Assembly (NCBI GenBank): GCA_040954595.2
Contig: CM082577.2
Coordinates: forward strand, 2,666,001 to 2,730,000
From: Balanoglossus misakiensis
Lineage: Eukaryota; Animalia; Hemichordata
Length of the DNA: 64,000 nucleotides
Direction: 5' to 3'
In this document: piece after piece, positions 1-63,471 of the stretch
Layout of the letters: each line of letters opens with the position of its first letter
Position numbering within the stretch: position 1 is the stretch's first letter
Translations under genes and position numbers: made by a program
Notes under the pieces: model-generated
What the model was told of the DNA's origin: nothing
What the model saw: the letters and a program-made list of their open reading frames with translations, nothing else
Database searches by the model: none

Positions 1-23
1 GTGATGACTTCTCCATCCATTAT
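1..23 (-). CDS. CRYM: CRYM coding exon 3 (partial, runs off window)
   Basis: Acceptor gatatcAG at 25-24, phase 0, reads IMDGEVIT, matching the conserved (V/I)MDG.VIT..RTAA motif. Confidence 0.85.
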
Positions 24-899
24 CTGATATCAACAAACATATCGAGGTTTTCAACCACAGATTGGATTCGAGAGTGCACAAGAGTACTGCTATGTTCAGG
101 ATTTATATTTCTGGCACAGCCATTTGAAATTATTTGAGTTTTTTCAAGTTTTCATATGCGTGGTATTCTCTCAACAAATGTCTGATAAAGCATAAACTAA
201 TTTGCATAATTATGTACAAATTGTGATACTAGTAATTTGGGAGAATACTTGTAGTTGAGTAAGAAACAATTTCTACTGATGCTTGTACAAGTAACAGATT
301 TTCAAAGTATAAACACAAAATCGAATCTACAATAATTAAAGTGTCATACCGTAGAAGATCAGACAAATTTTTTGACAGTACACCGAAGAGTAAGAGTTCA
401 GTGCAGAAAAAAATATGACAAAGTGCATTCTTAGATTTGAACCTTACTGAAAAAGTGGCCACAGAAACAACAGTGCAGAATTAGCCCATGCATTGTTAGT
501 TGGTAAGTAATCAATCAGGGGAAAAAGGAATTTTAATCCATGTTGTGTCGTTTGTGCAGGCCAGTTTTTTTTCTCTCCCTAGTAAGACAGACATCCTGGT
601 CACACAGTCATTTACATAAAGATACATTTATGCCTTTTCAGGTGATCAAGTAAGGTCATGTAATGTGACAGAAAATGCCATATGGATTATGAATTGGAGT
701 TCAAACTATTGAGAATTTACCTTCATCAGAATAAATGATGACAAAACATTCCATTCCAAATGTACAAGCATTTAAAAATCATCCTTTTCCAGCAAACGAG
801 CTGAGCAATTTGATTCAGACATAAAAACAACAACATGAGAATATTTCAAGGGTACTTTAGCTGGGGAAGTGTTTAAAAATATATGGGGGTCAAACTTAC

Positions 900-1050
900 A
901 GATTTAACTGATCCGTTTGATGCTTCGAATAAAATGATGGTAGCTATGTGTGTTGGGATTCCTTTCTCGGCATTTGAAGGGTAAAAGCAGACTAACTTGG
1001 AGGCCAGGACACTGTCTCTACTGGAATAGCCTGGCATGACGGCAAGAAAT
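900..1050 (-). CDS. CRYM: CRYM coding exon 2, canonical variant A
   Basis: Acceptor ttcttccAG at 1052-1051, donor GTAAGT at 899. 151 nt, phase 2 to 0: FLAVMPGYSSRDSVLASKLVCFYPSNAEKGIPTHIATIILFEASNGSVKS, closely resembling vertebrate CRYM (LGVMPAY...TKLVTFY...PSHQATVLLFEPSNG). Confidence 0.92.
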
Positions 1051-1158
1051 CTGGAAGAATTGATGCAAAGTGACAAGTCAACTCAGAGATTGCAAAGAGC
1101 AGAGGAGTTATAGTTGTGTTATAGATATTGGATGATAGCATGAGGATGAATTCCTTAC

Positions 1159-1309
1159 TGATCTCAGAAAGCCCTGGGTGTGGTCAAAGTAGTACAGAGT
1201 ACTTTGGGGACCCGTGAGGCGTGTTTTGTCACAATCTGGGAAGCGAGCCACAAATTTGGTCACCAATACTCCGTCATCTGCAGTGTATCCCGGCATTGAA
1301 TATAAATAA
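1159..1309 (-). CDS. CRYM: CRYM coding exon 2, divergent variant B (candidate mutually exclusive exon)
   Basis: Acceptor ttttgaAG at 1311-1310, donor GTAAGG at 1158. 151 nt, phase 2 to 0, no stops: YLYSMPGYTADDGVLVTKFVARFPDCDKTRLTGPQSTLYYFDHTQGFLRS. Aligns without gaps to variant A. Confidence 0.8.
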
Positions 1310-1625
1310 CTTCAAAAGAATTAGGCAGATGGGTGAGAATAGATTGCACTGACCATTCACACTTGAAATCATCACTCAGTACCCGCATATGCTGTCTATA
1401 CTGAACAATACCTCTTTCACATACATGTATGACATGAACAAAATACATGCAAAAACATGTTTCTATGAACACATCCAGGCATACATATCATATTTCAGCA
1501 ATTTAATGAGTTTTAAAGCCCCAATTGAACGATATTTTTATTGAAATATTTCAATCTCCTAAAAATCATGAAATTAATGCAAATATGGTCGCTATTGAGG
1601 CTTTAATGAAAACAAGAGAATTTAC

Positions 1626-1795
1626 CCGTTGTGTTCTTTCACTGGCACCACAGTTCGTACCGGCTGCACGATGCCACACTCTTCACCTTTCGAGAAGTCC
1701 CCAAGTGCTTTCTCTATAACAGGTATCAAGTCAGCCATCTTGAGAACCTGTTGGACGCTTTCCATTGTGATGTATTTGGGAAGATTTTTGGCCAT
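1626..1795 (-). CDS. CRYM: mu-crystallin/ketimine reductase (OCD/mu-crystallin family), first coding exon
   Basis: ATG at 1795 gives MAKNLPKYITMESVQQVLKMADLIPVIEKALGDFSKGEECGIVQPVRTVVPVKEHNG, matching the CRYM N-terminal motif (LIP.E.AL.NFS.G.GV.QPVRTVVPV). Donor GG|GTAAA at 1625, phase 2. An acceptor AG at 1829-1828 implies an upstream non-coding exon. Confidence 0.92.
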
Positions 1796-3185: not shown

Positions 3186-4539
3186 AGTGTTGGCACTGTT
3201 TTTTTTAGACCATTATCACAAATTCTGTATCAAAATTGTTTTATTTTTTTTAATGTCAAAGTCATTGATGGTATGTACAAGTGAAGCAAAGAAAATTCCT
3301 GGTTTGCATTCATGTGAAACTTACAAGCAGTGTATAACTCTAATTGGTGTTTTTTTTTCCTGTCAGGATTACAACAAAAGATGTCTGTATTCTTTTGTTC
3401 AGAGGAGATGTATTTCTAAATGCAAGTATTTGTCATTTCTTTGTTATATATTAATTGTAATCCTGCTGATGTTATATCTTCATCATTCATGATCTGTCAC
3501 CATCATTCATTTTACTTTATAGAACCCATAATAATCTATCGCTTGCATTTGTAATTGTATGACGTTTCTTATATTTACACCATTGCTGTACATGTATATA
3601 GTATACATATACAAGTATAGCATTTCAAAAAAATGTCTTCTTGCAGAATTAAATCACAAATATAGACCCCAAAAATTGCCTGTTTATTTCTGACACCGTG
3701 GCGGTTTTTCAGCTTGTGAAGTATCTTTCAGAAAAACGACGGTCAATAGTGCCACCAAAAACCACTGAATGATAATACAGAAAATACAGTGACAAAAGTA
3801 TCTTGCTGGAAAAGTTTTTAACCCACAGACGATGATAATTATCCGATGTCATGCAGTTTTGAGCCGAGAACTCAGTGTAAAGGCTAGTGCAGACATACAT
3901 CAAACAGTGCCAAGTCAAGTGGCTACATTATAAAGTACCCTGTACCCTCTGGTGAGTATGTACAATTGGTCTAGTCACATGATGCTCATCATGATCTGAA
4001 TGGAGACTTTGCCGGCGCTATTACTACGTACGTGCGCATGGTGATTGTAAACCGATAGGCATTTTGAGTCACCGGTCCTTTGTGATGATAATCAGCTTGT
4101 CCGATCCCATAAAACACTGTTTGCATATCAATGCATCGCAAATCCGGATTAGCGATTGTTCAAGCCTCTTCTGGCTTTTATCTGTGTCTGTCACACTTTT
4201 ATTATTTGCAGATATTTATATGCATGTGCATTTGGCGTTTATTTTCACCGGCGCGTTCTCTGCAGTGCTGCTAAAACTTGGCCGGCTACCTGTGTTCATC
4301 TCTCTCGCAAGTTTGGACAATTCCTGGACGGTCTGCGTCCACTGCAGTTGAAAAGAAAACCTGTGCATGCACCCATTGACAAGATACGCTTGGTTGATGA
4401 TTAATATCCGAAGTGAGCAAAGGCTAGAAAATTTGCTTAGGGGAGGATTTCAGAAACGACAACGCATATTTTTTAAATGCACTAGCCGAGTTGCTTGTGG
4501 TCAGATTTTTTTTCCTGGCAAAAAAAAGAAGAAGAAAAT

Positions 4540-4978
4540 ATGGCCAAGAGCACTAACTCTAAGGATGAGGTTTCATTTTGTTCGGACAGCAGCGGCGCGG
4601 ATAGTAATCAGTTGTTGTGTGGAGAACTGCCGAGGTCCACATCCCAGCACGGCCTGCAGGATGTCAACATGAACACGGCGTCGAGTGGCAAGAACCGGTC
4701 GTTCAAGTCGCTCAGCTCCGGTGACCTGTCGAGCCGCTCAAGCCGCAACAACGACAAGAAACAACGGCCAGAGAGGGTCACCGGCAGGAAGGGCGGTGCT
4801 CGCTCCAAGTCAAGAGAGAGAGGACCTGCTGACCCAGACGCCTCCGCCGCCACGTCTAATGTTGTGGAAGCCGAGAAGAAGAAAACAAAAAAGAGCCAGA
4901 AACGGGAGAAGTCCAAGCACTCTAAAAGCAAGCAGAAAGTGAGCTCAGACGTTTGGAGTGATGGTGAGATTGATGATG
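4540..4978 (+). CDS. Myosin first coding exon 1a (Ser/Lys/Arg-rich, disordered N-terminus)
   Basis: GC-rich open frame MAKSTNSKDEVSFCSDSSG...WSDGEIDD ending at donor G|GTAAGT (4979), phase 1, compatible with the acceptor at 40759. Confidence 0.7.
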
Positions 4979-7900
4979 GTAAGTCGTGCATTATATTGTG
5001 ATAATTTAATTCTAGCATTCTCATATAGTACAAAACTGATTTAATGATGAGTTTCCAAATGATTGGAATATTTGTCACATTCTGGCTTTCACTGTTCCAG
5101 AGTGTTTCCAGAATGAATTATTTCTGCTTTGGTGCATGTAAAAGGCACGCTGCAGGGGGCCACATGTAAGACATGTAGCTATATTGTGGTATTGCAAAAT
5201 GATTGGTTTGTTTAGTCTGGCGCAACTACTGTAAAACGGTTATTTTCGCGACAGGAAATTTTCGCGATATCAAAAGAGGCAACTGTTACACGAGGATTAA
5301 TTTTCGTGTCCTCGTATTTCACTTACTGCATCGTTATCTCCGAAAAACATTTTACGCAACTTTTTTTTGGGCTCTCGCGTATTTCGCAAAAATTTATTGC
5401 TCGCGAAAATAAACCCGTTGTACAGTATCTGACCAGGGCTACCATGATACACCACAATAATAGATGAAACTAAACAAGCCCCTCAGGCAGTGTACCAGTG
5501 GAAGTTTTTGTCTAACTTTTTTTTGCAGTCGTAACCGATCAAGATTGGACTTGAGACGTTGTAAATATAATCATTGTGTGTATTCACCATGATTAATGTG
5601 AGTTTGAGTGTCCACAAAGCCTTCAATTATTGCTTGTCGTTTATGGTTTTCTACACTACTTGAAGGAGTCTAAAGGAATACTTAAAGACGTAGGGACACC
5701 TATCTGTAGATTCGTGTCAGTGCCTTTTAGTTTACAATGTGCACCTTTGGATCAACAATAAACACTCATTTAGACGAGATTTATGACTTTTACATATACT
5801 CATTGGCACCTCTTAAACATAAAACCCTAAACTGCGAGTATTGTGTGAAGTGGTCGTTGCTACCAAACAATTTCTATCTGAAAGGCGGGCTCGTTTGTGT
5901 TGATGTGGGAGGGTCTGCGATTTCGGGTCCAGTAGTTGAATCCTTTGTGCATGCAGACAGTGTTGGTAAAAGACGACTTGTGTTGTGGACACTTCTTATG
6001 GTTTTCAACTTCTTGATAACTTTGTTTTTGTCAGTAAATTGTCATATCGTGTAAACTGTTCAAATCTTCAGTAATATTTGAGAAATCTTGACTGAAGAGC
6101 CTCAAAACGTTGATTGAATCTTGTGATTGTGAATGTGTCATCTAGGAATTATTTGCAACTTTTCAGATTCACCTGTTGACTCATATCCCACTGATTTCCA
6201 AATTGGCCTAAATTGCAGAGGTCACAATCGGCTTATCGACACTCATTGTCAAGACAGATGTCTTGTTGAAGCACAAATTATAGTTTGGAAAATCTCTTTC
6301 AAAAACGAATCCTAGAATCTTGAATGATTGGCAGATCACCAAAAATGGATAGGAAATCAAAAGACCTTATGGTTGTATGCAGGATGAAATAAATAGAGGT
6401 TTCTATTACTGTTTTTTTTCTTGATAAAAATGGGATTTGCCTTCATGAAAAGAAACATGATATATGTACAGTGACACAAAATAGCAACTTGTTTAGATAG
6501 CTTATAGATTTATCCTTTATTCATACCAAATTTGGGATTATCTGCCATTTTACCGGTATTACCAATATGGTTATCACTCAAAAGACGAACATAGCTAGGA
6601 TACACTGTACTTTGAAATATCAAAATTGTATTGCTCTGTTGTAGGCATAGGTAATTTCTGGCATTTTGTATGTTGTGATCGTGCAAAAAACTTCTACGAC
6701 ACAATGGGTGCACATTGTAGACATAGCGTGGGGAAAAGACTCACTGGTACTTTAATGTAATAAATGTAGGCCCCGAGTGTAAGACATTGTTGACGACACA
6801 TTCCATTGCACAAACATGACTAATAGTATTGCTTTCAGATCAGTGAACGTCCTTTGGAACTCCCGTCTTTGTGTCATGAATCGGTGCATGTCGGTCGTGA
6901 ATAGGCGCCATTCTTAGCAAACAAATGTATTTTGGAAATCATTTTTGTCCTGATAGATGTCCATGTTTTCCTATGAGTGCTTCATATAATAATGCTTATA
7001 ACATTTTTTTTCAATACCTTTGATCCCCCCAAAAGTCTTTTAAAAGGCAGACAGTGCAACTGTATCGTACAGACAATCTTCAAATACTGAAATGTATTCT
7101 GAACCAGAGTCAAACACACCAAGCTGTCCCTGCAGGATTGCAGTCAGACCGATTTAATGCTCTTAAATCTACTGATCATAGGAGTGTCAACTGTTTTTCA
7201 GCTTTTTCGGCACAGCTGCCATCCCGGGTGAATCCTAGATCAGTGTTGACCTTAGCAGTTTTCACATTTTCATTAAAATTAAGTTTTGCAATCGCCATGG
7301 TTATGCCAACGGACTGTAAGAACCAGCTTCAAGCCCTTCCCTTTTTCCCCCTTTTGTAGTGTGCCGAAAAATGTGTCAGCTGATTTCATTCGGTGCTGAC
7401 AGTCGTAGGTGTCGTGTTAGTTTTCAAAGTCACAGACTAATAATCGTTGAAGGAAAATTTTACATTCTACAGAAAATCTTTCTATGACTTTCACTCTGCT
7501 GTACTCCAGATCAGCAGTCAGTCTTGCTTTCACTGTGCAGCATTTTGGGATTCAAGTTTTAAAACAGGCAGGCCATTGTCTACGACATACCAAAACCAGT
7601 TTAAATTCTACCCACATGTCGTACACGATGCCCTGTGCCCTCATGAACACCGTTGCTGTCTTTTATCCAGTTTTTGACTTTTTTACAGAACGTGATTTTG
7701 TTCTAAAACAAGTACACTGTCAGTTCTGTTTTGATTGGGATGCTTAGCCAAAGTGTCGCATAAACAAAGTAATTGTGTAAGTCTCGTGTTAGATGGCGCT
7801 GGCCATAATGTGCGAAACGACGTTCATGATTGTTTGCTATTGATAGTGAAATCTACTGACTGTCTTATGGTGTTTATTTTACAATGGTTGTTCAGTTCTG

Positions 7901-40100: not shown

Positions 40101-43100
40101 GATTTAATTCCTCTGCTGGTGTTCAAGTTCAGTTGTTTGTGAACATAACGATGCCGGCTAAAAAATACAAAGGCTCACTTGACAAGCTAAATGTGAGACA
40201 TTTCAGTGTGAATTATCAGAAAACACTGAAAATATTCTTTAAAAATAAGGAACATTGACAAATTTATTTTCAAATTAAATTTTGAGTTTTTCGTTTGTGA
40301 TTGGTGCATATCACATCCTGTCTGTTGTACACATACGCTATGTGGTCCATTGCTCTGACTAATACTCGCATTGCACAGCGCCATGTTTTCTGTCTGTCAG
40401 TTTTTTCTATGAGCTCCTTTCAACTCAGAGTTCTGTCGAAGAACACATTACAAGAAAACCGTAAGGACCAGGCCTTTGTAGACTTGAAGGAAGCCATAAT
40501 GACGGACACAATGAGAAGCGAGTGTTGAACTAACAGAGTTCACCTCGCCACAATGAAAAAAGTGACTTCTTTGTGCCGTAATGCTTTTCAATTTTCTTGT
40601 ATGTCCCAGTTGGCGAACGGCGCAAGAGAATTAAGCCTACTGAGCAGAGTGTCTCTGCCAAAAATTTGAACACCACCGTGTTGTTTCGTGCACATGTTGC
40701 ATAATCTTTCGTGAAGCGCCTCTACATCGATGTTTGTTTCTCTTATCTTTGTTTGCAGCCACTTCTTCCAGCGAAGTGGTCATGTTACGTGAACAGTTGA
40801 AGACTCTGAGCACCGAGCTGGTGTCGCTGCGCACAGCACTGGTCACGAAGACCGCAAACGGACTCGCCAACGCAGCGGCCGACCAGTCTGAAGATGGTAG
40901 CCAACCCAGCCACCTCCAAAATTCCTCACACACTTACCAAGCAGAATTCAACAGTGGTGAGATACCATTATCTGTAAATATTTGTGATTCAAGCTATGTA
41001 GAAAGTGTGTTACTGTTTGTCTTATGTTGTTCATGATTTTCAAATAGAGTACTGGTATATGTATGTGACAATCCAACGACAGCTTTCTCTCATCCTTAAA
41101 TTTGTGGCAATTAATTCTCAGAAAAATAATGTACACCATAAGAGATTTGAAGCCTTTGAAATATTACTTGTATTAAAAACAACACAACGTACAACTTTGA
41201 TACGCACTTCTATAGACGCCCTCTAGAAATGCAGATGTGTTAACCTTTGTTTTCAGCAGTTTTTGATTTCTTGTGCTGTTTTAGTGTCTTTTGGTTGTAA
41301 AGTAAGCAATGGCATCAATGTTACCCACCAGCACATAATAATGTCAGTCAGTAACTCTCAGCTATACTATCGCATCAGTGCAAATATTATAAAACAACAC
41401 CATTAAAAATGTTCAGTGTTTGCATTGTCCTTCGATTTCATTTTTCAATCATTTGTCAGCCATTTTCAAAATTTCAAAGAAATGAGAAAAAGGCAACTTT
41501 TCATGACACTGACCATTCAATTTCCATGACGACAACAGATTCAATACACCTGGAAAGGAAAGAGAACATGGCGCCATTCTCTGAAAGCAGGAATACGACG
41601 AACAAAAAATTTACCAACAAGACCACTGCCAACGTGATCGGGAGAAGCTGTGCTCCGGGAGACTTGGAGGATCTGATACAGCTGTGTGGGCCGCTCACTG
41701 AAGATGCCATCATGAAGACATTACAACAGAGATGGGACCAAGGGTGTACTTATGTGAGTTGGGATTTTGAAGAAAATTTTTTGACTGATGATTTTTGTAT
41801 GTCGAGCTTTGGGTCTGTTCAAGGTGAATGGTGTATTAAAATAGTACCCTCTAGAGATGGCCATTGGAGTTTTCGTAGAGAATATAGTTGCATTATGTTC
41901 TGACTGATTTTGGGTGTGTTTTGAATGTCATCTTGCAAGATGATAGTCTTTGCTTCTGAGTGTGAAAATGCTGCTGTTGTAAAGAGAAATAATTTTAGTT
42001 TGTTTCTTTTGGTAAAACAATAGTACACTTGCAGTGAATTAATAAAAAGTGAGTCTTGGACTTGCTGGTGATTTCCTTTCGGAAATTTACAAATGATCTT
42101 ATCCTCTGATTTTCAGACAAAAACTGGACCTATTCTACTCTCCATGAATGCATATAAAGGTGATCCTCACACGTTGAGCGACGCCCTGTTGCACCCAGTT
42201 GATCACAATCCGTATTTATTGAACATTGTTAAAGAGGCTGTGCGTTTACAGACAGAGACAGGGTACTCACAGGCAATAGTGCTCAGGTGTGTTATCAATC
42301 TATACTTGTAATCCTTTAGCAGAACTTTTATTTTTGATTTATGCAAATAGATTACTCTCCCTTCATAATTTCCAAATTTACCCAAAACTTTGAACATTCA
42401 TTTTGCAGTGGGGAAAGTGGAAGTGGCAAAACCTACTCCTCAATGCTGTTGCTAAGGCAACTGTTTGACCTTGCAGGCGGAGGACCAGGAACTGATGGCT
42501 TCAAGGTAAGGGGTCGGAGTTTAGAGGTCATCAGGTAAAAGATAACTCTTTTATGGATATTTTGAATATCCATAAAATATCCATATCTCTTATCTATCGA
42601 CAGCAGGTGTTAGTATTAAAGTCAGTTTTGTCTATACCCAGTACATTGTTGTACAATATAGATTGGACACAAGCTACCAATGTAATCATATGTTTGGGGA
42701 GTCCAGCCAAAAATTTGGGTTTTATTTGCATATTCTGTGCTAGAAATATAACATCAATTGTTTGAACCAGATGTCCATTACTCAAAGGAATTCAGAGTAA
42801 TGGGAGAGGCAAATCTGAAGTTATAATCATTCCCGTATTTTGAATGCGCAAACTTTATCTTGGTTTTTTCAGCATTTATCTGCAGCTGTTACAGTGCTGA
42901 GATCGCTTGGAAGTGCTGCCACAGTTCAGAATGCAGATTCTACCAGAATGGTGAGTTGCGTGTACATGTGACGGATACAGTGTGGGCACATGTCTGTAAG
43001 ATGATGCCGTTCAGTGTGGCCACATGATTAGGCAGGGTTTATACTATTCCTATGTATGTGCATGTGTATTTATACATGCACTGATATGTACACTAGTACA

Positions 43101-46100
43101 GATACGTTATATGTACATGGGGTACTGGTATGCATGCATTTTCAAACTGGCAAGTGTGGAGTTCTTCAACTGGCTATCTAACATGTATTTGGAACCATGG
43201 ATTTCTTTCATTTGTGTGTGAATTATTAATTAAAAAATTAAACTGACAAATTGCTCAGTTGCATTTATAGTCTCTTGTTACTCCACTGGTTCTTGGTATT
43301 GTTTTTTTTTTAATCACAATGGAATTTTGTTTCTTCAGGGTTACTACACAGAAATCCACGTCTCGGAGGGTGTCATATTCCGCAGTAAAATCCACTGCTA
43401 CTACATCGATCAGACCAGAGTCACACACACATCACAGCAAGAGAAGGGCTACCACATTTTCTACCAGATGTTAGCTGGACTAACACAAGACGAAAGAGGT
43501 AAAGTCAGACAGTTATCAGAAGTGGTTTTTTGTTTGTGTTTTTTATCTTGTTATGGAGGCACTGTGAACGTGGTTGTGCAGGAGAGTTGCTTCCTCTGAT
43601 AAAGTTGTCTTAGGTACCGTGGATGGAATTCAGTATGTGAACAATGAATAATAATTGTTTTCATATATTTGCAGTGAAACTACATTTACAAGGCTATTCT
43701 GCCCATAATCTCAATTGTTTGAACCATATGCTGACAATGGACTCAGATGAAGACTGTGAGAGATTCATGGCTTGGAAGGTAAAGATACACCAATAAAACT
43801 CTCCTTGATAAAATGACCATGATTGTGGTTTAATATTGCAGACTAAGAAAATGTTAACAATTTTATGTTCTGGAACCTTTTCTTTGATTTTTTTTAAAAG
43901 TTTGTTCATTCCATGAGACATAAAATAAAGACATTGAATTTGTTTTAATTCCTTCAAGCCAACCTTTTTTGTAACATTAATGCTTTGTAAGAATTATAAC
44001 TGACAAAACTTCTAGGAATCCTACCATGCCAACTAGAAGCAAAAGATGAGCTGTAAAATGTTATCCAAGCTTACAGTTATAACTTCTAACATTGTTTAAT
44101 TGCTAATTGTCTTTTCCCAGAAATCCCTGTCAGTTCTTGGAATCCCGTTCTCAGATGTAATGAGGATCCTTGCGGCTGTCTTGTTACTTAGCAACATTGA
44201 ATTTATGGAGAGCAACGATTTAGAGCTTGACATTAAAGGAAACAATGGTATGTGCAGTTTGTTTAATCTACTGTCTATGGTTTAATACTGTCTATGAAAA
44301 AACAGTATAACTACAGCTACAGAAGTTACATCTATGACAAAATTCTCTGAAAGTGAAACTTCTAGCTAATGCTAAAGTGAAATCCAACATAACAAAAGAG
44401 AATCTACTTACCCTTACAGTGTTCAAATATACAAAACTCAAATTCATCAGGCTATTCTAATTTCTGTACATTTTATGTTATAAATACTGTACTACCTTTT
44501 CTCATTTTAAGTCAATGTCACATCAAACTGCAGATCCTTCATATACGAAAATGTATGACTTGCAGATGTCACAAAAGTTGACTCTATCATTCTGTACAAA
44601 AGTTGCGGGTCATACCAGCATGAATTATCCAAATTATTGAACAGTGTTTCTCTACATAAATCTGGCTATAGTATGAACAAGTATAGACTGATGGTTATAT
44701 CCTTTGTTATACCAGTGTATCCCTAAAAGAAAACTGGGTTTTCCTTAACACAGTGAGTGTAGTGTCAGTAAAGATAACAATGTGTTTATTCCTGACTACC
44801 GGTACATGCAACATTCTCTGGTGATGTCATTACAGCTGGGTTAATGTGCATCTCATTGCGATCTCCCAGTTGAAGTTTCCCCTGGTTGTGTATGGTTGTT
44901 GTCATATTAATATCTACAAAATACAAAAACGTCAGAATGTAAAATTGACAAAATCTGAACCGGTATGTGTTGTTAATATAGTGTACAGTCAACTAAGAAC
45001 CATAGAATTTACAGAGTAAACTTAGAAATTTTTCACAAGGTTTGCCAAAGGCCAAAAAGTTGAAATTTCAAGAAGGGAAATGGCAAAATAATTCAAACAC
45101 ACACATTTATGGCATATCCATTGTTTCCATCTAGTTTCATATAAATTTAAGTTACTTACAATTAGTGTGTGGTTCAGGTTGTGATGAGATTCCCAAGTAT
45201 AGACATTTCATGGCACTTTGAAGTGAATTTATGTGACAGTGGAGATCTTCCATGTGTTCAACAAACACTCCATTTGCTGGGTGAGATGCTTGGTCTCTCC
45301 CAGGAGTGACTTGATAAGATACAAGTGCAGTTTGCTGACCCATTCTCTCTTGCAAATTGTCGATTTCTGTGCTGACAGTTACTGGGCTTGCATCTTCCTG
45401 GGAGGATTGTGGTTGACCCATATCAGCTTCAATTGTGTTACTTTCAATGCTGTCTAAATTTGAAATGGAACAAAAATATCTGCAGGAATGTAATTCTGGT
45501 CAGTCATCTTTAATTGTTTCCCTGTCAAGTTTTATGAAATTTAACTCATTTTAAATTAAACAGTATATAAATCTTTATAGTGAGCTTCGCACATTTACCT
45601 TCAACAGAATTCGTTGATGGTGTCAGACTTCTCAGATAAGTTCCTGGACGAAAGGATTTCCACGTATACAGAAATCGCCAAAACAGTCCTGTGCAGAACA
45701 GCACAATTAGGATAATAATGTGTTCAAAATATGAAAACTACTTTTAGTACATTCACACATTTCTTCAGGTGTGTGACTGGTCATGATTGGCAGCTGGCCT
45801 GTTCATTTCAGTGGTGCTGTTTGCGAGCAATTGCATTGGCAACAGCCAATCAGATTACTGATATCAGACACACCCACAAGCAAAACCTTGTCAGGTAGAC
45901 TGATTGAGGGTACATGCACTGTATGTTATCTATGCTAGTTTTGTTAGACTGAAAAATCTGTCTTTGGAGGGCGAGAGCAGATAGCGCACTTGATTAACAG
46001 ATTTTCCATTCTGTTGTTTTGTATACTTACTAAAAACGTAAAAAATGTCCATGTCTTCGCAAAGTTCTCACAGCGCTGTGATAAATAATAAAAAGGAAAT

Positions 46101-49100
46101 GGGGGAAGCAAGTAATACAACTACTACTTCTGAATGATTGATTGTTTGTTTGTTTGTTTAATAATAAACACGTTCTTTGGCAAAGCGACTTTGTTTTTCT
46201 CAACCATACATTATTTGTGAAAGTAGTTTTTACAACCCATCTATAGGTCTATAGGCTGTAAAACACAGAATAACCTTATTAACACCAGAAGGCATTATAT
46301 TATAAATTACCAGCTTATCGTATGAATGCGCAATGTACCAGGTACATACAGCAGTTGCTAAGGCACAATCTTTGGATAATATTTGATTAAAAAAATAAGT
46401 ATTTTTAGTCCATTACTATACAACATATATCTCAAGCCATTTATGGAGACTAGTTTGCATGCACAGAGATAAAAAGCCAAACACGTCACGTACAGGGGGT
46501 GAACAAACTTGCGCCAATGGCACACTTTTTGTGACTTATTGATGAACAGGGTCATAGTACACATCCTGTTCTGCTGTACTGAAAACACTGATTGCCATGG
46601 CAACAGAGAATGTCGCAAAATAACGTCCAAGGAAGTTTCTAAAAAAGCTCAATACAAAAATCCCCATGAGGTGACTTCATTATAATAATAATAATAATAA
46701 TAATACTTTATTTGCCATAGAAATAAATGAAACAAAAACAAAACAAAAAGTCATTTTCATAACATAAAGGAAACAAATCTATGGCTGGAAAATAGGAAAA
46801 GTGTTGTTGACTTTTATACATGTTTTTTTCCGTATAGTTGGACTTGGTAGTTTGGGTATTCATTTTTGCGCAAAATTAGTGCAAAACTATTTTTGCCATA
46901 TTGTCAAGACAAATGTTACCAAAAGACTGGGGCAAAAACAGCAGCCATTTTACCGGTAATACAAAATGATTGTAGAAGACTGTTTTGGTGGAGGCAAAAT
47001 GTCGCACTTTTGCAATATTTTTTTCATAATCATCTTCCTCGTTTGCATTCTTTGCATTGCATTTCACTGTTCTTGTTCTATACTGCAACATATTAAAAAT
47101 GCAAATGTACTTAGTCTTCAACCATTACCGATAAACAGGCCCTTCACACTTGTAATGCACTTTTGGAAGGAAAAATACAAGACTGAAAAACGAATATGCT
47201 TTCTCCAGGAAAAAAGTTGCAATTTTTCTCGTGCTGGTTTTAAGAGTTTACATTTTCTCTTCTTTATATGATTCTCTCATCCAAACTCATTAAGATATTT
47301 TGTTTTGTTTAGTTTGGTTTTGATTTGTTTATGATTTTTCAAAATAATGTAGAGTAAAGTCAACTGTAAGAAATGGTGGGCAGGTAAATAAGTGTAACAG
47401 TGTTGATTCTTTGCACTGAGTATTGAAGACTTGTGTAGCTGTACATCGTTTGAAATTGTCTCTTACCTTTTTTGGTTGAGTACCGCCAAGTTTGTTATTC
47501 TTCAGATTCTGGGCTTGAGTCTGTGTTAGTGTGGGCTTTATGTTATTAGAAAGAGCTGTTTTGATAGGCTTAGCAATGTCACCCGATTTAATAACTGTTA
47601 TGGGCCGTGTGAATGTCCATATGGATATTTCATTGTAATGGTTAAATTTTACAGTTCTTAGATTACATCACACATATATAGAGGTGTAGCTAGGCTCAAA
47701 ATAGAATTCAAAAATTCCAATGACATGTGCGCACGGGATGGAGAGGTAATGTTAGGGAGGGGGGGGGGGGTACCTACGGTATGTTCCTTTTTGGGAAATA
47801 CCGGTAGTTATAACCAACAGAAAAAGACAAAGTACACAGTATCTGATTTTTTTTACCAGAATGAGATACACTGGATGAGCGCAACTTTGAAACCCACCCT
47901 GTTGTAGAATACCAAGTACACGTATAGTAATTTAGGTTCATTACGTATGTGATATTTTTTTTAATTTGTGGAAATTAAAGAAATGAATACTTGAGAGTGA
48001 TCTGACAACTATACTTTGTGGTGATCCTTTCCATTGGACAGGTGTGGCTGTATTGTACATTTTTGGCCCAGTATGTTATTGACATTCTTTCAGTTTCAGT
48101 GTCGAAGTCAGTGTGATAATGTCTTTGGCTCACAGAAAATAGGCTGGTCATCTGAGTTAACACTACTGGTATGTGCTAGGCTACACACCATTATCAGTGA
48201 ACTCCACTGAGCAGATATGTGAATTTAAGATGGAGGGATCATGCAAATAATGCATGAACAGGCTATCACTACTGCTCTACTGGAAGTTTTGAGCTAGTAT
48301 CATTTCCTATCAACATTGTCGTTTGGACAACAGGACCCTTTCCTCAGATCTCTCTGCAACATTTTAATTCATAACAGTCTTATTTTTATATAATTAATTT
48401 TATTTCTCAACAGAAATCAAAGCAGTAGCAGCATTACTTGGGGTATCAGGGGTGTCTCTGTACAGAGGACTTACAACAAAGACACGCAATGTCAGGGGAC
48501 AGATTTTCAAGTCACTCTCTGATGCTGCAACAGTAAGTCTTGATATCTTGAATAACATTTGCAAACTGAATGATACTCTTTGAAGTAGTAATTCATCAGT
48601 TCATTCACTCTTTCAATAGCTGTCAATTTTTCCTTTCAAGTGCTAGGAGCAGTTCATTATTACTGGTAGTTTTCATTCATTCGTTCATTCATTCATTCAT
48701 TCATTCATTCATTCATTCATTCATTCATTCATTCATTCATTCATTCATTCATTCATTCATTCATTCATTCATTCATATTATGATTGATTTCTCTTAACTG
48801 CCTGTATCCCTAAACCTTGCAGGCCAATGCAACCAGAGACTCATTAGCCAAAGCCTTGTACTGCCGGACGGTATCAGCAATAGCAAGGAAAGCCAACAGT
48901 GTGAGAAGACCTGGATCAAATTCTGGTCATTCGAGTAGCAGTGACGATGTCCACCATTCAGGTGAAAATTTTGAAAGAACTCTTGATCATTTTAGACTTT
49001 CCTCTGAAGTCCTGTCTCAGTTCTCAATTCATCACTCTAAATATCTAAACCAAACTGGTCCCCACAGACAAAGTCCAGGTGACTAATAATGGATTAGGTT

Positions 49101-52100
49101 CTGTCTGTCCGTGCATCCCTACACGTGGGGACCAGGTCATTGATGATGACAAGTGTTAGCAGAATTCTTTAAACCTGGCATATCAGCTAAACATTGATTT
49201 CTTTTACCTAGACCATTTACTAGTAGATATGTACATATTTGAAAATAAAATGCATTTTTCCTCTAACTCTATAATACTTTCCTTGTTAACATTATCAGAT
49301 CAGCAGAGCTGTAAGCAGCCTTCGCCGGCAACTTCCAAGTTATCTGTCAATCACTCGTCAGCTGTCAGCACACACTGTGGTAGCCTAGGCGATGGCATCA
49401 TTAGTGTTGTCGACATGTTTGGATTTGAACATAACCAGGTCAGTTTCTCCCCCTTGTAACTTGAGGGAACAATTAGTGAAAACTCCCATTCTCTATACTT
49501 GCATTTGGACACATTAAGCACAAAAGGCAATTTACTTTAAGTAGAACAAAAGCGAAGCTCTAAATACCCATTTTCATTGAAAATGGGTTAAAGTGAAAAA
49601 TGGCAATTTTAAATTCGTTCAGTTCATAACATTGTTGAAATTGGTATTTTGTGATAATCTGTACACTATTGAACGAGAACCTACTTTCAATTTCACCACA
49701 GTGACTGTAAATTTTGTCTCTCAACAGAGCAATCATTTTGAACAGCTGTGTATAAACTTGTGTGCAGAGACATTACAGCATTACTACAACACCCATGTAT
49801 TCAAAAGTACACAAGAATGTTGTAGGTAAGCAAAAATTGATTTTCTGTTTCATAAGTTGGGTTCTTCATTAATGACAGTCAATGGCATATAACTGAACTG
49901 ATTTAACTGCATAATTAAGTAACATACATGTTTTTTTTTATTTGACAGGGAGGAAGGAATTCCATTTGAGATTGATGTGGAATACCAAGACAGCACTCCT
50001 GTTATTGAATTGTTCTCAGCACCAGTAAGTTTCAATCAAGAAATGTTTCCAGATATATACAAGTATAGCACATAGTTCACCACACTCCTGCCATGCATGC
50101 ATTGATATAAATGTCAGTGTTACTCTATTGGCTTTCTGCAAACACACAAATTTCACTGACTATTTTTCATATATCAAACTTCCATATTCAGAAACAGCTT
50201 TTGTGTACACTTGTCTCATATCTTCTGTATTTTTTCAGTTGACTGGAATATTTTATCACATGGACAAGGAAAGTACAAACATAGAAGGGAAAGGCAGCAG
50301 TGCGTCCTTCGCACAGAACATTACAGCCCAGCACGTGCATTCACAAAGGTATGTAATCAACCTCTAAAGCCTGTATTTCCCTCTCCACAGTTTTACACCT
50401 AAAAGCTGTAGGTGTTTCTTCTCAAACATGTAATTTTTTGTCCTGAATTTTGGATTGTGCCAAACATCAGGGTTTTTGTGATCCTTCACATTTATGGCAT
50501 TTCGACAAATTTTGTTCAAAGTTGAGAGGTTGTGAGAGCACAAAACAAAAGCTGAAATCTTACAGCTTCAAAACATCTCTTGAGAAGGTACAGTGTAGCT
50601 GTACTTTTGTGGGAAGTTCTGCCTCACTTACAAAAATATGTGAAAGAGTTTTTTGGGGAAAAGAAAGATGCATTGTTTTGCTACATTTAATTCCACGCCA
50701 CTTTGCAACAAATTGTCGCTACATTCTACGTTATACCATTTGACTACTTCAAATCCACTCAGAAAACATTGCGGTTTTGAAGTGGTGTCCTTGGAGATTA
50801 AAAGTGACAAATGACTTAATTGAGTTCCGTATGCTTTTAAAGTTTATTACAGTGTTACTTCTTGGCAACAACACAAAGTTCTGTTCTTTCTCTGAGTTGT
50901 TTGCTTTTTTCCCGTTCAACAAACTTAGTCACAACATAGCTTTGTACATATTTTCATTCTCATGCTCCTTCAGCATACAAACTAAAACAACATTCCTGCA
51001 AACCATCCATTTCAAACCCAAAGAGGTTTGACTTTTTCAACCCTGTTTTCTTGGACTTGGGTTTAGCTGTGCCATCAAAAAATTGAAGCTGAGCCAATTG
51101 AGGTTATGAAATATCACATCTGTCACTGTGTTGACTTTCATCCCAGGTTTTACAGCCCCGAAGACGGAGGGACATACAGTTTTGGAATCAAACACTTTGC
51201 AGGCAATGTGGTCTACGACGCAACCAACATGGTGGACAGAAACCGAGATCTGGTCAGCGACGACATCTTGTCCATTTTTCAGAAGCAGAACTGCAATTTT
51301 GGCTTTGCCACACATCTCTTCATGAACGACCTCAAATCTCAAGGTAAATTTAAGTAACAGAAATGTTGGAATGATCGAGTCGTTCTCATGACCTCTGCAT
51401 GACCTTTCATGCTAGTATAGCCATTGGTGTGAATCCATCCATTTTAGTGAAAACACTGTCTTTAAATATGAAACTCTTGTACATGTACATGTACATGTAC
51501 ATGTACATGTTCCTGCAGTTGTATTCACTGAATTCCTCACTGAATTGAAAGTGTGATTCATTTTCAAGCAAAACTTTACAAGTTTCTTGCACCAAAATGT
51601 TGAATTTTGACAAGCAGTTTACCATGGAAAAGTAAATGAAGGAATTAACAGTGCCATGTCAATGAGAAAACGGTTAGCTGGACTGCCCAAATTCTGTGAT
51701 GTTCCCCACTCATAACACATTATTTCTTTTCAGGCAACAGTCAACCACGAGGCTATTTGCACAGAATTTATCCAACCTCATCGCTTCATGCAGAGCACTC
51801 AGGGTAAATGGGACTTGTAATTTGTCAATTTTTTCTATGACAAATTTTATGCCAAAAAATAGATTTCATTACACTGAAAACCTAAACACTATGACATCAA
51901 CTCATATGGAGCATGAATGTGAATGTAAAGTCTTCAGGATTTAAACTTTCATTTTCTGTTTCTGCAGGAAAGACGGGGTGAAAAGAACATTTTCTCAGGA
52001 TTTCCAGTGTAGAATCGACAATCTTCTGAAGACACTAATGCATTCCAAGCCACATTTCATAAGGTGTATCAGGGTAAGATTAACTATTCCCTCGTTCTTT

Positions 52101-54325
52101 TGCTTTGGTGTCTTTGGCGGGTAACATGAAAAGTAATTGTAGCTTTTGGATATTGGAAAAGGAGATTCAAATCTGTCTCTAAACGATTATTTTTTTCTGT
52201 TTCTCTTACAGCCATGTCACTTTGACTCGACATCAGAATTTGACCTCACAGTTGTCAGAAGACAAATCAGAGCTTTACAAGTGTTGGAGACAGTGCATCT
52301 CATGGCAGGAGGTAAACAAATCACCATGATTCGACAAGAGAAAGTTTAACCCTTTTTTGGTCCAAATCCAGTGGTTTCTATGGTAAAGTAGAAGCTCAAG
52401 AAGAGATATGGGGTTAAAGGGTTCAATTGCTTGAGTATGTACCTTCAATAGTTTTGAATGGTCTGCAGACGTGCAAGTGTGAATTAATATATCATGTTTA
52501 CTCCATCATTCAGGGTACCCACAGAAGATGAGATTCAAAACTTTCAATCACAGATACAAGTTTCTGTTGATTCACAAACGTCTGAGAAGAAATGAAGAAA
52601 AGGCAGTAGAAGACACAAAAGTAAGAATGGATTTTAACTACACATGCAATCCACTAACTGTTGTTAATATAACCATCTATCACAGCGCAATATCGGGTAC
52701 TTAATAGTTCTGTGCTGAACTGTTGTGTACTAACAACTTTTGTTGTATTTTATTGGATTTTTTCAGGCGATATTAGATTCATTTCTGAAGGCGATGGACG
52801 AAAGCAAGCTACCGTACACCAGTACAAACTGGGCGATTGGAAAGAAACACATATTTTTAAGGTTAGTGTCACATGAAAATATTAGTGAAATCTAAGTGGG
52901 AAGGCCATCCGGAATACAAAGTGAATGTAGGTTGTTGCTACATACAGAACCAAAGAATAATCAACACACTGTTTGAGGTGATCATGAAGATTTACTCTGT
53001 GTATATGTTTTGTTTGTGTTTTTTTCACAGTGAGGGTGCCAGACAGTGTCTGGAACTGCTGAGGCATCAGAGGAGGGAAGAAGCAGCAACAATCATACAG
53101 GCCAACGTGCGGAGAGTGCTCTGTCAGCGGCAGTGGCCGTCCCTGAGAAGATCGCTCGAACAGAAACACCACGTCAGAACGCAGAGCAATGTGCAATCCA
53201 ACAGAAAGTGAGTTTATGCTACATGGTGTATAGCAATTACATTTTCACTCAAGTTTAAACAACTCCTTCTTGTTCATCAATGTTTCTGACTCAAGTGATT
53301 TTTTCTATATTTTTTCTCAGATCACCAATGTATCAGGAAATTGAGAGGCATCGGAAGCGAGGACAAGAAAGCGAAGTTTGCGACATCAAGACTATCCAGC
53401 AGACGTGTTATCTCTATGGTCTAGATATGGTAAGGAATGACCTCAAATGACCCTTGATTGACCTTACTCGACCTTGACATTAAAAGAACCTGAGAGACCT
53501 TCAAGTGACCTTATCACCGTTTATCTTAACTACTTTTTAATTATCTATATTTCATTACCCCATTGATGGTACATGTAATTGTCTGATCATATCTGCAGGA
53601 CAACCCGCCTCCTTTGCCTTCAAGTAGACCTTACACCGTGGCTGGCAACTCCAAAATGGGATTCCCTCAGACTAGGATAATGAAACATAGCTTTCCAGGT
53701 GAGTAGATACCTAAGCATAATGTTAAGTCATGCAAAGTAATAACCAGTTTTGTATGTAACAATAGATGTCGTTGAAATAACAGAAGTGTAATCAAATAAC
53801 TGGTCGGTGCAGATCAAACTTTAAGTTTGAATGATGTTTGTTTGTGTGTGTGTGCCGTTGGGATGCATGTTAATTGTTGTGTATTCAAAATCTTTAGATA
53901 AGATTTGTAATCATACAATTATGTCTGTAATGTTTGCATCCACCAGAAAGCCAAGGTGAGGTTGTGTTGAAGAAGGGAGACACTGTACAAGTGATCGGTG
54001 TGTCTCCAAGACGCGGACATCTGATGGTAGATTATAACGATAACGTACTTCACGTGCCATACCAACTAACAGAACTCAAGGTAAAGTGTACTGTCCACTT
54101 TTAATAAAAAGTTAAGTGTGGTAGAATAGAAAATATTCCTCAGAATCACCAGTGGAAATTATGCATTTTGTTTCTTTTGTCTGTGACAGGCTGCTTTTAA
54201 TTATTGTATTGTAACATCATGACGTAATAACTTGGAATACTGGTTCATAATTGCAATTTATTCGCTTTTATTGACAGCCACAGACACCACCGAGATCAAG
54301 ATACGTCACTGGAGTAGAGATATGA
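4540..54325 (+). CDS. dachs: Dachs-like unconventional myosin (class XX): motor domain, one IQ motif, Pro-rich segment, C-terminal SH3-like domain; ~1170 aa, 26 coding exons
   Basis: Phase-consistent GT-AG exons: 4540-4978, 40759-40956, 41539-41753, 42117-42286, 42409-42505, 42873-42950, 43339-43498, 43675-43778, 44121-44247, 48414-48532, 48823-48961, 49299-49438, 49728-49825, 49949-50024, 50239-50348, 51147-51343, 51734-51803, 51968-52073, 52212-52311, 52514-52620, 52767-52861, 53031-53207, 53321-53429, 53599-53698, 53947-54080, 54278-54325 (3513 nt, open frame). Motifs: P-loop GESGSGKT, YHIFYQML, switch II DMFGFE, FEQLCINLCAETLQHYYN, HFAGNVVY, KPHFIRCI, IQ motif AATIIQANVRRVL. The tail PPPLPSSRPYTVAGN...FPQTRIMK...LKKGDTVQVIGVSPRRGHLMV is Dachs-type as I recall it. 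Linking exon 4540-4978 is inferred from phase only. Confidence 0.85.
5227..5427. mobile_element. MITE with TA-flanked terminal inverted repeats (Tc1/mariner-like, non-autonomous)
   Basis: Begins TA|CTGTAAAACGGTTATTTTCGCGA and ends TCGCGAAAATAAACCCGTTGTACAG|TA, with internal TTTTCGCG repeats. A related left end lies at about 35083-35120. Confidence 0.7.
8855..9170 (+). mobile_element. DINE-1/Helentron-like non-autonomous element relic
   Basis: 5' hairpin GGTCCCATTGGTA-TG-TACCATGGGACC, then an (ATGT)n tract at about 8910-8950, then GTCCGTCC...AAAACT...TTTGGT. This is the usual HINE/DINE layout. Similar starts occur near 21580 and 49055. Confidence 0.5.
9230..10063 (+). repeat. Direct repeat pair (~113 bp)
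   Basis: 9230-9343 is nearly identical to 9952-10063 (CCTGAATGATTA...GTGTTTGCCCATTG). Confidence 0.9.
9530..9858 (+). repeat. Direct repeat pair (115 bp, period 214 bp)
   Basis: 9530-9644 is nearly identical to 9744-9858 (TTGGGGATGTGTTAGC...GATTTGAGAGCTA). Confidence 0.9.
10081..10111. repeat. (TGTC)n microsatellite
   Basis: Tandem TGTC units seen directly. Confidence 0.9.
11439..11720. mobile_element. Degenerate MITE-like repeat with (T)CCTGGAAA sub-repeats
   Basis: Recurrent TCCTGG(G/A)AA motifs clustered near both ends. Termini are poorly resolved. Confidence 0.35.
16122..16290 (+). CDS. Candidate alternative first coding exon 1b of the myosin
   Basis: MGDMMKKSWVSRAMTASQGEDWKQFRRSSLTLCKGLLQELSECCGGLQMSLQESNS, then G|GTAATC, phase 1. 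In-frame TAG upstream at 16113. Confidence 0.55.
18187..18606. mobile_element. MITE/foldback element with ~98-bp terminal inverted repeats
   Basis: 18187-18284 is the near-perfect reverse complement of 18508-18606, around a ~220-bp non-coding spacer. Confidence 0.8.
25852..25930 (+). CDS. Candidate alternative first coding exon 1c of the myosin
   Basis: MSLMMKSFIIDKYFEEMKRSTTADNQ, then AAG|GTAAAA, phase 1. Good start context (aagATG). Confidence 0.55.
37056..37092 (+). CDS. Candidate alternative first coding exon 1d of the myosin
   Basis: MASSDAANRRKA, then T|GTAAGT consensus donor, phase 1. Start context gatATGG. Confidence 0.45.
38396..38418. repeat. (CA)n microsatellite
   Basis: Tandem CA units seen directly. 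Confidence 0.9.
48672..48775. repeat. (ATTC)n microsatellite, ~25 units, in a myosin intron
   Basis: Tandem TTCA units. Explains the spurious (FIHS)n ORF. Confidence 0.95.
51478..51510. repeat. (TGTACA)n self-complementary hexamer repeat
   Basis: Five tandem TGTACA units. Confidence 0.9.
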
Positions 54326-61600: not shown

Positions 61601-63471
61601 GGAGAAGGTGGAACCACAGTGTGGGGTATTACATCATTAGGTTGCTGGGGTAACGGCACCACAGGCAAGTCTTCATCTTGATACAGTAATGATGGCAGGA
61701 ACACAAGGCAGGTTTTGGGATCAATACCGCACCTAGTCAAACATAAAATACAGAGACCGCATCTAAACTTCATTAATTCAACCTGATTGACTTCACAGAG
61801 GGAAAACCATTAAAATGTCTCACATATAAACGTCTTAGATAAAATTCTATGTGTAAAGATCACATACCATTCAGACGGAATATCTTGTGTCAGAAAGGGT
61901 GCAAGAGCAGCTATCCCTTTAGGAATCACGCTGTGTTTTTCTCGTTCTTTCTCTTCTTTTATTGTCATTTTCTCTTCGACGGTATCCGACAGCTTGTACG
62001 GGAAATTGACATCGATTGTACTGGGTGACGTACACGAGGCAGAGTCTCTGAGTTTATGCTTCGCAGATTCTGACATCTTCACATCAATCTGAAGTGTTCT
62101 GCACTTGACGGCTTCTCTATGCGAGTCCCAATCCAAGCGCGGTTTGGCAGACATGGGTCGCCGCCTGTTCCCCGACGCTGCCACGTCCCTCTCCTTGGCG
62201 AATTTGGCCGACTGCGGTCTCTGCCTGACTGCAGGCTTTTTAGGGACATACTCAGCACTGCTGTGGCAATTATACTTGTCATTAGAAAACTTGGCGGCTC
62301 TCCTTTCCTGAGTACTGCTGGGCGGCATGTGTTCGTTGGATTCAAGTCTGGCTTTGGCACTCTGCGGCCTCCGCCTGAATCTCTCCGTTGAGCCAGACGC
62401 TCGTCCCCACGGCGACGGTGACCGATTCCTCAACAGGTCTGGCTCAAACAGGAGATGTTTCGACGTCCCCGGACGGATTTCAATTTCACTTTCGATTTTC
62501 ACTGTCCTTGAAGTTGAACCCCGATCGAGATCAGGATTTGGGGCGACTGGACTTTCTCGCTTTGGCAAGCCATGATGCCTCTGATGCCTGATGTACTCAT
62601 TGTCTTCCAGCTGCAGAGTCTGAATATTGGGAGTTGTGGACAGCGACGCCTTGGCACTGAGCGGCCTTGTGTGGAGAGGGTATTTCACTTGGTGAATGTC
62701 AGTTTCAGAAGGCTGAAATAGGAGATGTTTGGAGCTTGTTGTGCTTAACTCCTTGGCATAGTTCTGTCCTGCTGCATACTTGATTTGGATTGTTGGCCGG
62801 CCTGACGGTGGCTTGCTCAAGACTCCTGCACAACAAATGACAATCATTGCAATCGATCAACAGGTAGTTTGTGTGACTGAGAGTTGTTTACAAAACATGT
62901 CTCCAGGCCAAACAGTAATTGCAAAAGGCAACAACAAAATAACCCATTTAACAACGCAGGCCAGCTAAAGGCTAAAAGTATGGTAATGGTAATAGATAAC
63001 TGCGGATCGTGTGATGATATCATATGTCATGTGAATGTTGCCCTTTTCTATTTCAATCATTTGTGTACGAGATCCCCGAGTACAACCAAGACTTTGGCCT
63101 GACCTGGTTCGCTGACGGCATATTTTCTAGTTTGGAAAAGCTAAATTTCCCAAATCGAGAAGCAAACATGTCCAGACAAGGCTTGCGGTTGAAAAAACCT
63201 ACGTTGCCATGACAATGGCGTGCAATGGGCGTGGTCAAAACGTGTTCTGCGGTCAACGATCTTTGTGGTTGTCCCGATCCGATCCCTACACTGGGCTGAG
63301 CAACTCAGCACACTGCTGTTTTGAAATAATGAAGCTTGGCGTGGGATTCATAAATGCAGTGTGTTTGATAATCAGCAAGATGAATACACCACTTCATCGC
63401 AAAGGGAATCTAACAGCAAAAACCTCACCTGTATCCTGAGATGCCCTCTTTTGTGTTTTGTTGTCGGCCAT
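58617..63471 (-). CDS. Uncharacterised ~584 aa protein: basic disordered N-terminal half with RPxSAK repeats, helical/coiled-coil C-terminus; probably cilia- or microtubule-associated
   Basis: Phase-consistent exons: 63471-63429, 62825-61868, 61732-61591, 61417-61388, 61163-60937, 59859-59792, 59435-59336, 58936-58897, 58763-58617 (1755 nt, open, ends ...LQREVMKEYS-TAG). Contains RPLSAK, RPQSAK twice and RPMSAK. No family recognised. Confidence 0.8.
60690..60729. promoter_or_regulatory. Pair of intronic RFX X-box-like motifs
   Basis: GTAGCCAGGGCAAC (60690-60703) and GTAACCATGGCAAC (60716-60729). A third, GTAACCATGACAAT, lies at 60403-60416. Confidence 0.5.
63203..63216. promoter_or_regulatory. 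RFX X-box-like motif in the first intron of the minus-strand gene
   Basis: GTTGCCATGACAAT versus consensus GTTGCCATGGCAAC. Confidence 0.55.

Follow-up and report, generated by a model that had tools for sequence, protein, structure and literature searches.

The minus strand of positions 1–1795 of the window, the 64-kb stretch of Balanoglossus misakiensis DNA analysed here, carries the 5′ part of a mu-crystallin (CRYM) gene, whose first 113 codons lie within the window. The gene segment contains a first coding exon, two adjacent homologous exons, which we denote A and B, and the beginning of a common downstream exon. In order of transcription, with mouse CRYM residue numbers mapped from alignments (these agree with the rat variant names), the features are:

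1626..1795, minus strand: first coding exon of CRYM, 170 nt, ATG at 1795, ending in phase 2
1310..1625, minus strand: intron preceding exon A, 316 nt, GT-AG, acceptor ending ...TTTTGAAG
1159..1309, minus strand: exon A, the derived 151-nt alternative exon, with M62 and K75 kept and Y58, Y60, R79 and P91
1051..1158, minus strand: intron separating exons A and B, 108 nt, GT-AG
900..1050, minus strand: exon B, the ancestral-type 151-nt exon, with F58, M62, K75, V77, F79 and H91 kept
24..899, minus strand: intron following exon B, 876 nt, GT-AG
1..23, minus strand: start of the common downstream exon (IMDGEVI...), 23 nt up to the window edge

The first coding exon encodes the equivalents of R47 and V49, and the IMDGEVI residues of the downstream exon also follow the swapped segment in the acorn worm Ptychodera flava. 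Exons A and B are each immediately preceded by AG and followed by GTAAG, both run from phase 2 to phase 0, and both are stop-free in the frame starting one base in; the acceptor of exon A (AAG) looks weaker than that of exon B (CAG). The locus thus has the anatomy of tandem duplicated, mutually exclusive exons: two homologous exons lie side by side, match in length and phase, and have intact splice sites. Neither a second CRYM copy nor a third copy of the exon was found elsewhere in the 64-kb window. Re-reading the sequence confirmed the first-pass annotation in its two 151-nt exons, their coordinates, phases and splice sites, the 108-nt gap and the 15 of 50 amino acids shared.

The reading frame constrains how these exons can be used. 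Transcripts joining exon 1 to the downstream exon through either A or B stay open up to the window edge. With both exons included, translation meets a stop at codon 118 (peptide ISCRHARLFQ, then stop); with both skipped, it does so at codon 58; and if the 108-nt intron between them is retained, at codon 124. Because joint use and joint skipping both end in an early stop, as had been proposed from the sequence at first pass, only one exon or the other alone keeps the frame. The window gene is therefore likely to undergo mutually exclusive splicing, a reading that gains support from an orthologous P. flava gene annotated with exactly these two isoforms and from the conservation of A-type residues between the two species. 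Such a gene would use one promoter and make a single choice of exon A or B per transcript, with exclusivity enforced mainly by the frame and both-or-neither transcripts cleared by nonsense-mediated decay. A steric block of A–B joining is unlikely, given that a candidate branch point in the 108-nt intron, around 31 nt 5′ of the acceptor, lies around 77 nt from the donor of A. Competing RNA pairing of the docking site/selector type was set aside for lack of support: 38 of 60 shuffles did as well as the best upstream candidate, and 16 of 25 as well as the best downstream one. An 8-mer and a 7-mer recur in the sequences around the two acceptors (1310–1345 for A and 1051–1100 for B, minus strand) even though third codon positions are saturated; 4.6% of random acceptor-like pairs share as much. 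These words are possibly conserved splicing elements.

The two exons differ in how closely they resemble known CRYM sequences. Exon B alone matches PF02423, the profile of the OCD/mu-crystallin family, at 35.9 bits against a cut-off of 24 (E=5e-9), mouse CRYM at E=1.5e-9 and human CRYM at E=3e-8. Exon A alone reaches only E=0.65 against CRYM and has no Pfam match, PF02423 being present in the full A-form orthologue of P. flava. A metagenome scan returned 31 loci, three of which (L001, L002 and L011) cover the exon region, all with a B-like sequence. The L011 homologue contains introns in the same phases as the window gene and has one B-like exon of 148 nt; neither the 432 nt of available upstream sequence nor the stretch leading to the next matched exon contains another copy. 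Since B matches both CRYM and PF02423, A barely does so, and L011 has a single B-like exon, exon B represents the ancestral type, from which A is derived by copying.

Exons A and B align without gaps, with identity at 15 of 50 amino acids and 66 of 151 nucleotides, and their ungapped BLOSUM62 score of 70 was reached in none of 100,000 shuffles. Identity at codon positions 1, 2 and 3 is 24, 28 and 14 of 50, respectively (positions 1 and 2 against 3, Fisher p=0.0056), and 13 of the 15 residues in common are encoded by different codons. This concentration of divergence at third codon positions shows that exon A diverged from B while under coding constraint.

Close relatives of the gene are found in P. 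flava. Querying with exon 1 returned five proteins among seven candidates, all from this species, and the exon is identical at 49 of 53 amino acids to XP_070580653.1. That protein (X1) and XP_070580654.1 (X2), which have consecutive accessions and 316 residues each, are isoforms of one gene, and their 32 differing residues all fall inside positions 61–108, the segment corresponding to exons A and B. Both are predicted (XP_) automatic models that carry no functional statement and are known here from their protein sequences alone. RefSeq isoform models generally rest on RNA alignments. X1 is B-type, with 36 of 50 residues identical to window B, and X2 is A-type, with 29 of 50 identical to window A and 17 of 50 to window B; window A and the X1 segment likewise share 17 of 50. 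Window A agrees with X2 and not X1 at 16 positions and with X1 and not X2 at 4, and window B agrees with X1 and not X2 at 21 positions and with X2 and not X1 at 2. In a tree of 11 segments (50 columns) in which most other branches are unresolved, the three A-type sequences lie on one side of a branch with support of 100/99. The grouping of window A with the P. flava A forms indicates that the exon duplication predates the split of the two species. X1 and X2 combine the same two segment types in one gene as the window does; at the identities given above they differ from the window gene, as a different species or an unlisted paralog.

Besides the two-isoform gene, P. flava has the CRYM paralogs XP_070580655.1, XP_070581599.1 and XP_070580649.1, whose models comprise one full-length B-only protein (P0009), one full-length A-only protein with an intact GAG nucleotide motif (P0010) and one B-type protein of 104 residues (P0011). 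The X2 segment is identical to the A-type paralog P0010 at only 39 of 50 residues, which argues that it is a separate genomic exon and not a copy of P0010. The paralogs show further substitutions, K290 and L292, which adjoin the pocket, being changed in P0010 and position 91 being Arg in P0011. The 50-residue exon A and exon B queries matched 0 of 4 and 0 of 15 candidates, respectively, among longer proteins, and exon A against 1.84 billion representatives gave three matches, all long proteins with five to eight short matched stretches that we judged to be chance; as these searches missed even the P. flava A proteins, their blanks set no bound on the range of exon A. Three peptides from the window had no exact sequence match in the protein collection, and an ESM Atlas search returned general OCD-family clusters only.

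Between the window species and P. flava, the A segments are less conserved than the B segments and exon 1 (49 of 53), and A therefore evolves faster than B, a pattern also compatible with relaxed constraint. One could accordingly read exon A as a duplicate that formerly functioned but has fallen out of use or begun to decay, the X2 model then reflecting rare splicing noise, and its weaker-looking acceptor would fit such a history. Set against this are the open frame, exact length and splice sites kept in the window, the modelling of an A-type coding segment in two P. flava genes, and 13 positions that are fixed in all three A-type segments and absent from three B sequences (the 104-residue P0011 being left out of the B side). 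For comparison, 44 of 892 windows of 150 nt in the two flanking introns are stop-free. When neutral divergence to the observed A/B level (around one change per site) was simulated with substitutions only, the frame stayed open and both splice dinucleotides survived in 0.4% of copies, and at least 15 residues were retained in 1.5%, though a very recent loss of function would leave no trace. We regard decay of exon A as very improbable, and it is very likely that both exons are used.

The swapped segment contributes directly to the substrate pocket, as the first-pass annotation had recognized. In mouse CRYM, the contacts of the thyroid hormone T3 are F58, F79, V49, R229, S228, R47, K75, R118 and L292, according to the available part of a review (PMC9202446), and F58, K75 and F79 fall in the exon. 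The available part of an engineering study of the rat enzyme describes ten chosen active-site and tunnel positions, four of which (F58, V77, F79 and H91) lie in the A/B exon, and reports that in an S228G background changes at 58, 77 and 91 shift activity or stereoselectivity (PMC12804161). F79 variants are not among the top improved variants in that part of the study, and Arg is not among the residues tried at 79 (PMC12804161).

Window B keeps the mouse pocket residues F58, K75, V77, F79 and H91, and the hydrophobic T3 pocket of V49, F58 and F79 is intact in the B form encoded by exon 1 and exon B. The A form lacks this pocket: in all three A-type sequences residue 79 is Arg, residue 91 is Pro and residue 60 is aromatic, and residue 58 varies among Tyr, Val and Ile. 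No A or B segment departs from K75 or M62. Arg47, Met62, Lys75 and Arg118 are present in both P. flava forms, and R47, M62 and K75 in the window (R118 lies beyond its edge). Among 33 other homologues (L001, L002, L032 and L035–L064, mostly the best-scoring loci of a search of 401 Chloroflexota genomes), K75, R47 and R118 occur in 33 of 33, Arg79 and Pro91 in none, and position 79 is non-basic throughout; as this sample is narrow and mostly from Chloroflexota, Arg79 may be commoner elsewhere. Some of the Chloroflexota homologues (L032 at 306–1205, and L036–L042) are around 50% identical to animal CRYM, mostly keep F58, F79, H91 and R229, and are closer to animal CRYM than the solved archaeal relatives are.

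Models of the P. flava orthologues show a two-domain fold with a Rossmann domain, and the matches to mammalian CRYM are strong for both forms (E=5e-113 for B, E=5e-107 for A). All four strands of the sheet are preserved in the A-form model (pLDDT 94.4), which superposes on the mouse CRYM–NADPH–T3 structure with a TM score of 0.92 and an rmsd of 1.1. The A and B models differ only at residues 84–94, a region modelled as a short helix in B and as a loop of lower confidence in A; the pLDDT over residues 81–90 is 72 in A and 91 in B. The A model leans towards the B fold, since only 2 of the 36 rows in its input alignment are A-type. Mammalian CRYM (mouse 4BV8, 4BV9 and 4BVA; human 2I99) belongs to the same family and fold as both forms; its pocket residues are kept by exon B, and it differs from the A form, which has Arg79 and Pro91.

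On this evidence, we consider it probable that this acorn worm CRYM gene is spliced one way or the other, exon B giving the ordinary enzyme and exon A a further imine reductase with a pocket predicted to fit a different and likely more anionic substrate. Form B would act as a typical NADPH-dependent ketimine reductase and be capable of T3 binding. Form A is likely still to bind NADPH and an α-imino acid and to keep hydride transfer, because R47, M62, K75, R118 and the whole Rossmann domain are retained. The changes Phe79 to Arg and His91 to Pro, with the new aromatic residue at 60, would put a positive charge where the T3 rings otherwise rest against a hydrophobic wall, so that T3 binding may be lost and a substrate with a second acid group accepted. 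Candidates include a dicarboxylic ketimine, the imine of 2-oxoglutarate or oxaloacetate, and an opine. That the substrate range of A differs from that of B is likely; that A specifically prefers a substrate with a second anionic group is a more tentative proposal, which we put at somewhat below an even chance.

The same residues allow the two forms to be related in other ways. Both exons could be used, with A acting on the same imines as B and set apart chiefly by its failure to respond to thyroid hormone or to other halogenated aromatics, or else by kinetics alone. Form A retains the Lys and Arg that bind the carboxylate, and position 79, which with F58 forms the hydrophobic T3 contacts in the available part of the review (PMC9202446), is changed in all three A sequences; in addition, genes of the P. 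flava thyroid-hormone receptor pathway are co-expressed with metamorphosis genes (PMC11618098). However, a fixed Arg at this otherwise non-basic position and a rebuilt 84–91 loop exceed what losing a hydrophobic ligand would need, and the A-only paralog P0010 carries the further changes adjoining pocket residue L292. We therefore find an unchanged substrate range unlikely.

Less probable still is that form A is made but enzymatically inactive, serving instead to carry a ligand or to damp activity as a subunit of A/B heterodimers. His91, a strong determinant of activity in the rat enzyme in the available part of the engineering study (PMC12804161), is Pro in A, and the Arg could block the pocket. 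Yet the rat H91A variants described there are more active on one reaction, not dead (PMC12804161), K75 and M62 are retained in every segment, and a full-length A-only P. flava model keeps its nucleotide motif. We thus continue to favour a second, catalytically competent reductase with an altered pocket. A bolder extension, which we offer as speculation, is that splicing lets a single CRYM gene of acorn worms alternate between a ketimine reductase that binds T3 (B) and an opine or dicarboxylic-imine reductase blind to the hormone (A, with Arg79 and Pro91), the latter providing an outlet for anaerobic metabolism or detoxification in burrow sediments, and that the two forms later split into A-only and B-only gene copies in P. 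flava.

Substrate-switching exon pairs are an already known type of event, and the P. flava isoforms already stand in RefSeq, unremarked. The ketohexokinase (KHK) forms KHK-A and KHK-C differ in substrate affinity. A human catalogue of tandem duplicated exon substitutions lists KHK and ACSL6, and CRYM is absent from it (PMC8373072); these are internal substitutions in enzymes, like the CRYM pair, in proteins of unrelated folds and dated to Chordata (PMC8373072). In helminths, annelids and molluscs, exons 6a and 6e of coq-2 are of equal length (134 nt, not a multiple of three), are mutually exclusive and remodel the enzyme core, and the derived exon carries invariant residues close to where the substrate lies and brings about a change of product, as described in the available part of the report (PMC7434440). 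The CRYM pair would work in the same way in an unrelated enzyme; the coq-2 switch, its product and its link to anoxia have been shown experimentally in that account, whereas the CRYM pair is known from sequence. Sponge tauropine and strombine dehydrogenases, SbnB and iminosuccinate reductase show the OCD/mu-crystallin fold tuned to opines and dicarboxylic imines, according to the available part of the source (PMC8446579), and these are separate genes, in contrast to the splice forms A and B. A likeness of form A to these enzymes may serve as a lead. In the literature searched, which left most subscription papers outside its scope, we found no description of a mutually exclusive exon pair in CRYM, and the main text of two papers on hemichordate genomes makes no mention of CRYM (PMC11618098, PMC11175523). 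The CRYM exon pair is a real, conserved feature with an unusual pocket change.

The pair amounts to a natural experiment on the CRYM pocket, in which two proteins are identical at 284 of 316 residues and differ only in the segment that contacts hormone and substrate. Assaying the A and B forms would allow catalysis to be told apart from thyroid-hormone binding in a basal deuterostome, and would identify what substrate is taken by the Arg79/Pro91 pocket, which is unseen in the other homologues examined. Ketimine reductases have been engineered as biocatalysts at the same positions, as the available part of that work describes (PMC12804161), so a natural charged-pocket variant may be of practical use. 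The P. flava paralogs, in turn, may record a splice switch resolved through gene duplication.

The remainder of the window holds several other features. An inverted repeat at 2417–2526, with 53-nt arms that are 89% complementary and a 4-nt loop, lies around 620 nt upstream of the CRYM ATG and is likely to be a small hairpin-type repeat element. An open frame of a neighbouring gene at 4520–5001 (plus strand) stands head to head with CRYM and has no significant Pfam match, and a stop-free frame of 348 codons at 61810–62856 (minus strand) contains repeated RPxSA-like words, also with no Pfam match. Between them, at around 40600–53200 (plus strand), exons matching the myosin head (E=3e-9), with a weak IQ motif match, mark an unconventional myosin gene.
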